This document shows, one piece after another, positions 16,349 through 17,605 of a stretch of DNA of 57,173 nt. The notes under the pieces are model-generated. The model worked only from the letters and a program-made list of their open reading frames with translations. It did not search any database and was not told the DNA's origin. Source of the DNA: a virus (taxonomy: Duplodnaviria; Caudoviricetes); the IMG/VR virus record IMGVR_UViG_3300042879_000407, positions 1 to 57,173 of that record. One strand, 5' to 3'. Positions within the stretch are counted from its first letter, which is position 1; every line of letters begins with the position of its first letter. Position numbers and translations under genes: made by a program.

Positions 16349-17605
16349 ATGAGTAAGTCAGTCAAGAAGATTATCGGTGTTGCAGTAGCAATTGCCATTC
16401 CGTTTGCAGCCCCTGCGATTGCAAGTAGCATTGGTTTGTCGGCAGCAATCGGTAATATCGCTGGCTCCGCGCTTGTAGGCGCTGCCATGGGTGCAGGCGG
16501 CGCTGCCGTATCTGGTGGGGATGTAGGTCGCGGGGCGTTGTTCGGTGGCCTAGGCGGTGGTATCGCTGGCTATGCGGCTCCTGCGGCTACTGCGACCGGA
16601 ACCACTACGGGTGCTGCCACTGCGCCGGGTGTTGCAACTGGAGCCGCCCCTGCCGGGGCTACCGGCGCTGCTGCCGCTGCGCCCACTGCTGCTGGTACCG
16701 CCGCTGGCGGCGCTGGGGCTGCTGGGTTGCAGGAGATCGTAGTGACGGGAACTCGTGCCGCTGGGTTGGCACCCGCTGGAGCGGCCACTGCTGGGTTATC
16801 CGGTGCGCAGGCAGCATACAACGCTGCCCCTGAAGGTAGTCTCGTGAACCGGGCAACCGGGGAACTCTATACTCCTCCTGCCGCTACTCCCACGGCTGGT
16901 ACTACTGCGGCTCCACCCAAGACTTTCCTCGAAACACTGAAACAAGTACCCGGCAAAATTGCCGACAAATTTAAGGATCCAACTGCGCTTGCCGATCTAA
17001 CCCTTCGTGCTGCAGGACAGATCGCTGGGTTTTTGGCCGCTGGCTCTGGGCTGTCGCCTGAGGAAGAATCGCTTCTGGCCGCGCAGCGTGCGGAACTTGA
17101 GACTCTCCGTGGTACTAACCAAGAGTTGTTTAATCAGCGTCTGCAGGCTGCACAGGATATGCTTGGCAGCGCGAAATACTTTGACCCGGAATACTTCGGG
17201 TTGCAGTCGGCTCGTCGCGCTCGGATGGCTGGTGTTGCCGCTGAGCGTGAAGGAACTCGTGGACTCCGTGGCGAGCGTCTTGCTGCAGAACAACGTCGTT
17301 ACCGGCTTGGCACTGCTAGAAACGTAGGCACTGCCTACGATGTTGGGTTTGGGCAGGGTGTGACTGGGCAACAGGGGGCGCGGCAGACTGGACTTGCTAT
17401 GCTTCCAACTAGCGGCCCAAGCACCATGACTGAAACGCAGAACCTAGCCAATCTATATTCTCAACGTGAAACTCGCAGGGCTGAGCAAGCCGGACAGATT
17501 GGAGATTTCATGGGGTCGCTAACCGGACAACGTAAAGCCGGGCTTAGTGGAACTGAGGACTATGAGACTAGGCTCCGCCGACTGGAAGGCATCTTCCCCC
17601 GCTGA
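16349..17605 (+). CDS. Ejection (pilot-like) protein
   Basis: Gly/Ala hydrophobic N-terminus, A/T/G/P linker, Gln/Arg helical C-terminus. Confidence 0.65.
   Translation: MSKSVKKIIGVAVAIAIPFAAPAIASSIGLSAAIGNIAGSALVGAAMGAGGAAVSGGDVGRGALFGGLGGGIAGYAAPAATATGTTTGAATAPGVATGAAPAGATGAAAAAPTAAGTAAGGAGAAGLQEIVVTGTRAAGLAPAGAATAGLSGAQAAYNAAPEGSLVNRATGELYTPPAATPTAGTTAAPPKTFLETLKQVPGKIADKFKDPTALADLTLRAAGQIAGFLAAGSGLSPEEESLLAAQRAELETLRGTNQELFNQRLQAAQDMLGSAKYFDPEYFGLQSARRARMAGVAAEREGTRGLRGERLAAEQRRYRLGTARNVGTAYDVGFGQGVTGQQGARQTGLAMLPTSGPSTMTETQNLANLYSQRETRRAEQAGQIGDFMGSLTGQRKAGLSGTEDYETRLRRLEGIFPR

Follow-up and report, generated by a model that had tools for sequence, protein, structure and literature searches.

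How proteins and DNA ejected by a tailed phage cross the host periplasm, and what supplies the energy for the first steps, are questions of long standing, and the TonB dependence of phages has so far been ascribed to the receptor. A locus in the viral genome IMGVR_UViG_3300042879_000407 (Duplodnaviria; Caudoviricetes) raises the question of whether a phage can also present a TonB box of its own. The stretch analysed, referred to here as the window, is the complete virus record of 57,173 bp, which has a 117-bp terminal repeat and a G+C content of 52.3%. It encodes a 418-amino-acid (aa) protein with the decapeptide LQEIVVTGTR in its linker. On the sequence evidence presented below, the balance tips slightly towards the view that this decapeptide serves as a short linear motif mimicking the TonB box found in transporters, and that its carrier is a virion-internal protein which host TonB would bind and on which TonB-ExbBD would act. 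If this is true, phages would couple directly to a host motor in the manner of bacteriocins, and the ten-residue box would provide a simple, mutable handle for testing phage-TonB coupling.

The decapeptide and the protein that carries it

Positions 16727-16756 of the window (+) encode LQEIVVTGTR as residues 127-136 of the 418-aa open reading frame (ORF) at 16349-17605 (+), which has no family in Pfam, PHROG or NCBIfam. Residues 1-76 (16349-16576, +) comprise three predicted hydrophobic helices, at 3-25, 32-55 and 59-76 in an AlphaFold2 model based on a 33-sequence alignment. They are rich in small residues, contain seven overlapping GxxxG (glycine-zipper-like) matches and probably constitute the membrane-insertion part of the protein. 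Passages of one paper tie the glycine zippers of tape measures and of a type VI secretion system effector to membrane permeabilisation (PMC10240207). Residues 77-190 (16577-16918, +) form a low-complexity A/T/G/P linker whose length and sequence are highly variable in homologues. In the model, residues 77-150, the decapeptide included, have a predicted local distance difference test (pLDDT) score below 50, and the 139 residues that separate the hydrophobic N-terminus from the conserved C-terminal domain include 45 A, 22 T, 20 G and 13 P (100/139). The family is defined by residues 191-418 (16919-17602, +), a conserved C-terminal domain in which the blocks ADLTLRAAG and YFDPEYFGLQ are invariant, and which is modelled as helical over residues 193-415 with some blocks above pLDDT 90. 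The original prediction had described the decapeptide as an island in a linker behind a hydrophobic N-terminus, a placement borne out by translation, composition and the AlphaFold2 model.

Among the six-frame open frames of at least 100 aa in the window (32,815 residues), LQEIVVTGTR is the sole strong match to a TonB box. Because it stands alone in this respect, and is kept in four sub-lineages of the family whose linkers have diverged (see below), its occurrence goes beyond chance. Two relaxed or core-only matches lie elsewhere in the window, both within replication-type ORFs. A core-only look-alike in a helicase-like ORF, GIDIVVTPHR at 36821-36850 (-), was set down to chance, given the cytoplasmic nature of this protein and flanks that differ from those of the box.

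The specificity of the motif was assessed by back-translating L[QE]E[IV]VVTG.R to a degenerate DNA pattern and scanning public metagenome contigs. At least 119 stretches matched, and 80 loci were examined. In all 80 of the loci listed the pattern is in frame within an open frame; wherever the N-terminus is present, a signal-peptide-like start and a short spacer precede it, and receptor sequence follows. After nine frames with fewer than 140 residues downstream had been set aside, 71 of the 80 listed loci could be scanned for a Plug domain, and Pfam Plug (PF07715) was found directly downstream of the pattern in 69 of these 71 segments, among the matches listed. The other two (L097:1420-2139, +, and L120:2-487, -) lack a Plug in the 160-240 residues scanned. 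One metagenomic receptor fragment (L084) has the identical decapeptide LQEIVVTGTR, with Plug starting five residues later. Since 69 of the 71 listed segments bear a Plug and L084 is an exact copy, finding the pattern in bacterial DNA appears to be almost sufficient to identify a TonB box of a receptor. The original prediction had recognised the pattern of TonB-dependent receptors in the decapeptide, and these two results uphold that assignment. Functional weight for boxes of related form comes from the SusC protein Bt1763 of Bacteroides thetaiotaomicron, whose DEVVVTG box is reported in a section of one paper to be required for function, on the evidence of deletion and alanine replacement (PMC7782687). 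The strict pattern occurred in none of 151 genomes from the phylum to which genome G004 belongs and in none of 4 metagenome-assembled genomes (MAGs), so that this phylum apparently does not use this form of the box or the sample is too small.

The specificity of the flanks bears on one alternative, in which the decapeptide is a generic strand whose likeness to the receptor box is convergent. Its partner would then be a phage component (such as the portal, the tail lumen or a further ejection protein) or some periplasmic host protein that is not TonB. A core that is a simple beta-branched strand suits such a role, as does the dispensability of the box in most homologues. The match, however, extends to the flanks L-[QE]-E and T-[GA]-x-R, and the flanked pattern is almost exclusive to receptor N-termini among the segments listed.

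The carrier itself is no receptor: by Pfam, neither Plug nor barrel follows the box in the 418-aa protein, which is not a transporter. Neither Pfam nor NCBIfam identified a receptor-binding or cytotoxic domain in it. A 27-aa peptide around the box gave no match to NCBIfam or to PDB sequences, as expected for so short a query. When the C-terminal domain of E. coli TonB (residues 148-239, from Swiss-Prot) was submitted to complex prediction with linker residues 105-160, the latter as a 13-row alignment (A2), the scores (0.14 and 0.12, where the mark is 0.32) came from runs made without controls and with E. coli as a stand-in host, and they give no indication on binding in either direction. Together with the conservation and recurrence described below, the specificity of the motif strongly supports assignment of the decapeptide as a TonB-box mimic located in the disordered linker of a putative ejection-module protein.

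Retention of the box in a diverging linker

Homologues of the 418-aa protein numbered 652 at E <= 1e-3 in a word-indexed search of a 5.8-billion-protein set, and 301 cluster representatives were recovered in an exhaustive search of a 1.84-billion set; in both cases all were metagenomic and none was named. A box pattern broadened for homologues ([LVI][QEPKD][ED][IV][VLAI]V[TS][GSA].[RK]) was applied to 265 retrieved sequences. Twelve of them carry the box, and one more (P0010) carries a further, decayed copy. Among 34 related loci in genome and viral contigs the box was present in one (L029, on the same contig as L055), a more distant member of the family.

In a quick IQ-TREE maximum-likelihood tree of the C-terminal domain (68 rows), all box-bearing rows fall within a single 22-row clade with a Shimodaira-Hasegawa-like approximate likelihood ratio test value (SH-aLRT) of 95; P0011 and P0015 are absent from the tree owing to a length filter. 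The tree needs about four state changes, for example one gain and three losses. Within the conserved domain, lineages that have kept the box are approximately 59-62% identical to the window protein, or approximately 73% in the case of P0011 and P0015. The linkers of the four box-bearing sub-lineages cannot be aligned with one another and have almost no informative 4-mers in common outside the box region. In box-bearing homologues, between 6 and about 51 residues separate the membrane helices from the box; the spacing between the box and the C-terminal domain stays near 69-78 residues, and is 53 in one sequence. Retention of the decapeptide while the linker around it diverges, which the original prediction had proposed as a check, thus holds inside one clade but does not extend to the family, most members of which are without the box.

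Other modules occupy the linkers of boxless homologues. A module of the form AANATxDPI...LNASQGWT is found in 33 of the 265 sequences (P0009, P0014, P0021, P0033 and others), and DPVSSSYTN repeats are found in 20 (49 copies; P0024, P0044, P0053 and others). These alternative modules may be other docking peptides. As judged from the alignments, the box is a putatively selected yet optional module of a plastic linker and, being optional, is therefore not essential to the core role of the family.

Such plasticity is also what would be expected if the decapeptide had no function and were either a piece of some host receptor gene that the phage took up or an island that arose by chance in a fast-evolving linker. 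Modules have been gained and lost repeatedly in these highly plastic linkers, and no cognate host system is at hand for the box. Against this, the box is retained where linkers have diverged beyond alignment, no Plug remnant follows it, and it occurs many times independently in other phage proteins, often in tandem, with controls near zero. We therefore consider absence of function very unlikely.

The same box on other phage proteins

Viral contigs were scanned with the pattern described above (the TG pattern) and with its TA variant, alongside reversed-peptide and same-residue scramble controls. The TG pattern matched 26 stretches and the TA variant 33, as compared with 0 for the reversed peptide and 2 for the scramble. 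Real receptors account for 1 of the 26 TG matches and 3 of the 33 TA matches.

The TG receptor (L049) has both Plug and barrel, and a second single match (L055) is a member of the window family. The largest TG group consists of eight multi-box proteins of 780-950 aa (L035, L037, L059, L044, L047, L050, L053 and L060), with four to seven boxes in Pro-rich repeats. Four of these proteins (L035:3922-6555, -; L044:6490-8826, +; L053:8805-11630, -; L060:3667-6519, +) start with MANYYTYG or MASYYTYG, have their TonB-box-like copies approximately 45-50 residues apart and possess a common conserved C-terminus (…SDGEYVIDAETLALLGDG…). The multi-box gene of L044 lies between virion structural/tail-fibre genes and a gene for a PHROG 'DNA ejection protein'. 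Four further TG matches are virion structural proteins of about 990 aa (PHROG 11190), whose gene in L042 adjoins that of a gp5-like baseplate hub, and six are proteins of about 180-200 aa without a family. The remaining matches are single: L048 is a T4 gp48-like tail-tube cap in which the box occurs twice in tandem, L057 is a tape measure by Pfam (TMP_2), L054 is a 1222-aa protein whose sole family match, to a PHROG without assigned function, is marginal (E 9e-4), L039 is a small protein with a signal peptide, L036 is a nuclease of the Mrr type that has membrane helices, and L056 is a doubtful frame.

Tape measures predominate among the TA matches, with eleven proteins in six lineages (L187/L198/L212; L184/L195; L197/L207; L209/L211, which have two tandem boxes; L205; and L193), and the box is found in seven tape-measure lineages across the TG and TA matches. 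There are two tail-tube proteins (L191, L194), one gp48-like protein assigned by eye (L192) and three virion structural proteins of PHROG 12050 (L186, L202, L040). Of the three TA receptors, L188 was confirmed by Pfam, L214 has the same sequence and L189 is a fragment. Five large proteins without a family (L185, L190, L199, L206, L210) have the box at residues 5-14. They are 677-1077 aa long (for example, L190:1496-3526, +, and L210:360-3590, +), and the box directly after the start gives them a bacteriocin-like N-terminal layout. A relative of the multi-box proteins (L201) and one of the L054 protein (L203) were each assigned by eye; four matches are of other kinds (L183, L196, L208, L213), and two 50-aa frames (L200, L204) are probably spurious.

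Nine representative viral loci showed no BLASTP similarity to the virion proteins of the window at 1e-4, and we therefore treat the other viral box proteins as independent carriers. Most carriers appear to be tail-lumen, tail-tip or ejection-module proteins, virion parts that would reach the periplasm. The recurrence of the box on unrelated phage proteins, set against near-empty controls, strongly supports mimicry as the likely explanation of the motif. In cultured phages, the strict box was not found by searches with the L044 and L042 proteins, the repeat region of L035 or the L209 and L197 tape measures, and the tape measure of Marinobacter phage PS3 has no box.

These carriers also bear on the generic-strand explanation. 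Tandem copies on tail-lumen proteins could serve packing; on the other hand, the box recurs in proteins of unrelated phages that have no common partner, and control peptides of identical composition matched almost nowhere (0 and 2 stretches). Together with the specificity of the flanks, this leaves a convergent strand unlikely. A different alternative accepts the binding of TonB and assigns it another purpose. The box might act as a decoy that binds TonB after entry and titrates or blocks it, thereby excluding TonB-dependent phages and bacteriocins or stopping uptake, without energising entry. The evidence for motif specificity applies equally to a decoy, multivalent arrays could serve titration, and some carriers are small proteins of unclear role (those of the L041 type, and L039 with its signal peptide). 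Most carriers, however, belong to the tail lumen, the tail tip or the ejection module; being present in few copies per virion, they are ill-suited to titrate a cellular protein, and no late-expressed secreted carrier was identified in the window. A decoy function is accordingly highly improbable in our estimation.

Genomic setting, proposed role and known systems

Is the 418-aa protein placed where an ejected protein would be encoded? The virion-internal or tail block of the window opens with a gene for an 811-aa protein (12338-14773, +; phrog_511, 'internal virion protein'), followed by a 119-aa ORF, a gene for a 255-aa protein (15135-15902, +), a gene for a 144-aa protein and then the box-bearing ORF. 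Immediately downstream lies the gene for a 631-aa protein (17616-19511, +) with an SLT lytic transglycosylase domain at residues 244-335 (Pfam) and PHROG matches to 'lytic tail protein' and 'internal virion protein with endolysin domain'. The box-bearing gene thus sits in a virion block beside an SLT-bearing internal protein, the position of an ejection-protein gene. The same block includes a gene for an 862-aa protein without a family that has a long Pro/Gln-rich linker (19515-22103, +). Further on, a 1888-aa protein (25221-30887, +) matches phrog_11358 (proteins of about 3430 aa and unknown function) over its C-terminal 520 or so residues; it could represent a giant virion protein that has been truncated or split. 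At the ends of the record, the exact 117-bp direct terminal repeat (1-117 and 57057-57173) crosses a major-capsid-like reading frame at the window start.

The local order is the same as in the cultured Caulobacter phage GB2A, in which a tape-measure-type protein is followed by two genes and an SLT 'lytic tail protein'. The 631-aa SLT protein is 57% identical over 114 aa to GB2A gp062c, and the C-terminus of the 255-aa protein, which has a weak match of tape-measure type, resembles that of the tape-measure-annotated gp065c (E 4e-4). Within a Pro/Thr-rich stretch, gp065c itself (L180, 4582-6324) contains degenerate forms of the box core, namely a DEIVVT core with Pro after it and a DELVIK copy. 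With its shared module order and degenerate boxes, GB2A is a possible laboratory model. The 255-aa protein was also compared with the multi-box proteins of other phages; the similarity is weak (BLASTP E 0.052), and homology between them was not accepted. Portal and DNA polymerase are nearest to those of Rhizobium phage RHph_TM3_14A (approximately 37% identity), and next nearest to those of HMO-2011-type phages of marine Alphaproteobacteria and KPP25-group Pseudomonas phages. A cultured-phage collection contained no DNA or protein match to the 418-aa ORF or to window positions 12000-24000. In genome contigs, the ORF was found on 4 short MAG contigs assigned to incompatible phyla, which we read as probably misbinned phage DNA.

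Gene order and the membrane-type helices suggest that the 418-aa protein is packaged and ejected; its label of DNA-ejection or pilot-like protein derives from gene order. Neither sequence nor fold comparison with PHROG, Pfam, PDB sequences and PDB structures (Foldseek) revealed homology to a characterised ejection protein. A profile of the family (A1) matched only low-complexity prion-protein noise among PDB sequences (E above 0.1), and Foldseek returned nothing from the PDB at E <= 1e-3; in BFVD, the structural matches were uncharacterised proteins and a weak 'DNA transfer protein' (E 0.011).

If the protein does function as proposed, the following sequence of events can be envisaged. The virion-internal 418-aa protein would exit through the tail at infection, and its N-terminal glycine-zipper helices would enter a host membrane. 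The disordered linker of about 115 residues would then lie in the periplasm and present the box on a flexible tether, where the C-terminal domain of host TonB could bind it by strand addition, as it does with transporters and TonB-dependent bacteriocins. Driven by the proton-motive force, TonB-ExbBD would pull on the linker or else tether the nascent channel to the inner membrane, and pulling might help the ejected protein to cross the envelope or the channel to open. The tandem arrays of other phages would suit repeated engagement.

Several observations weigh against this proposal. The box is facultative, being present in 12 of the 265 homologues and in only one of the 34 related loci; the tree calls for about four gains or losses, and most homologues have other modules. 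There is no firm pointer to a host, given that the MAG matches are probably misbinned and the nearest cultured phages are only about 37% identical. The placement of the protein in the virion and its ejection follow from gene order, in the face of its having no Pfam, PHROG or PDB relative and a BFVD match that is weak. In the viral scans, families were grouped partly by eye or flank similarity with one representative scanned per group, and the patterns were themselves derived from this motif. Finally, T1 is the textbook TonB-dependent phage, and neither its structural coding sequences nor its six-frame ORFs of at least 80 aa contain a TonB-box-like match; a phage-borne box is therefore not needed for TonB dependence. 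The same result fits the earlier remark that T1 uses the box of its receptor. With respect to the interpretation first offered for this locus, mimicry of a TonB box in an ejection-module linker is strongly supported by motif specificity, conservation and recurrence, whereas ejection of the protein and its engagement of TonB-ExbBD are putative, and the box cannot be essential to the core role of the family.

A mechanism of this kind, if it works, would be widespread, given that unrelated phages bear the box on their tape measures, tail-tip proteins and ejection proteins. It would have a bearing on host range, on tonB-based resistance and on the annotation of the large unannotated 'linker' parts of phage tail proteins. 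More speculatively, and in our view doubtful as things stand, docking peptides for envelope motors could be a general, modular trait of tailed-phage entry, with linkers as plug-in sites for short motifs. Single boxes, or arrays of 4-7 placed approximately 45-50 residues apart, would let TonB-ExbBD reel in the polypeptide hand over hand by means of the proton-motive force, together with the channel and the leading DNA, and the AANATxDPI...LNASQGWT and DPVSSSYTN modules of this family would be equivalents aimed at other periplasmic machines.

How does the 418-aa protein compare with known systems? Full-text literature searches, whose coverage excludes most subscription journals, yielded no paper describing a TonB box carried by a phage virion, ejection or tape measure protein, in agreement with the original prediction, which knew of none for an ejection protein. 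The matches concerned receptor boxes, bacteriocins with their own box, and T5-FhuA. In a paper on Stenotrophomonas phage BUCT603, TonB is called the adsorption receptor (PMC9294509). This case is not pertinent as a precedent for a phage-borne box: the transposon insertions described there hit a gene of the TonB-dependent receptor family, and the naming of TonB looks conflated.

With the receptor TonB box, the phage protein shares the decapeptide and its pattern (L084) and the location in a flexible, exposed segment. It differs in having no Plug or barrel, and in that the box lies 50 residues past membrane helices rather than after a signal peptide. Among virion proteins, the podovirus ejection proteins (T7 gp14/15/16; P22 gp7/20/16) resemble it in their place in a gene block beside an SLT internal protein and in their membrane-type helices, but no sequence or fold relation to these proteins or to tape measures was detected. 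Tape measures are discussed in passages of one paper as channel formers that contact inner-membrane proteins (PMC10240207). A virion protein that would likewise engage a proton-motive-force-linked envelope system at entry, if our proposal is correct, has a counterpart in filamentous phages. Their g3p binds TolA, thereby hijacking the Tol system during entry; there, however, the system is Tol rather than Ton, a folded domain takes the place of the short linear motif, and the virus is of another type.

For the proposed function, a close parallel is provided by the bacteriocins. Group B colicins and S-type pyocins (S2, S5, G) possess a TonB box of their own, located in a translocation domain that is disordered. 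In common with the 418-aa protein, they have the box on an intrinsically disordered segment of a foreign protein (disorder in the phage case being that of the AlphaFold2 model). Unlike them, the phage carrier belongs to a structural module, is without a cytotoxic or identified receptor-binding domain, and has a helical C-terminal domain conserved in phage contigs. Several other phages depart further from the bacteriocins in repeating the box in tandem; we know of no bacteriocin with tandem TonB boxes. Presentation of a bacteriocin's own box to host TonB is described in portions of two papers (PMC10994204, PMC9040868). On the best reading of these comparisons, the 418-aa protein would work in the way that TonB-box bacteriocins do, yet it is a member of neither the receptors nor the bacteriocins. 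TonB-box mimicry is known from bacteriocins; what the present analysis suggests as new is its occurrence, as the exact receptor decapeptide, on a membrane-anchored ejection-module protein of podovirus type, that is, of a short-tailed phage.

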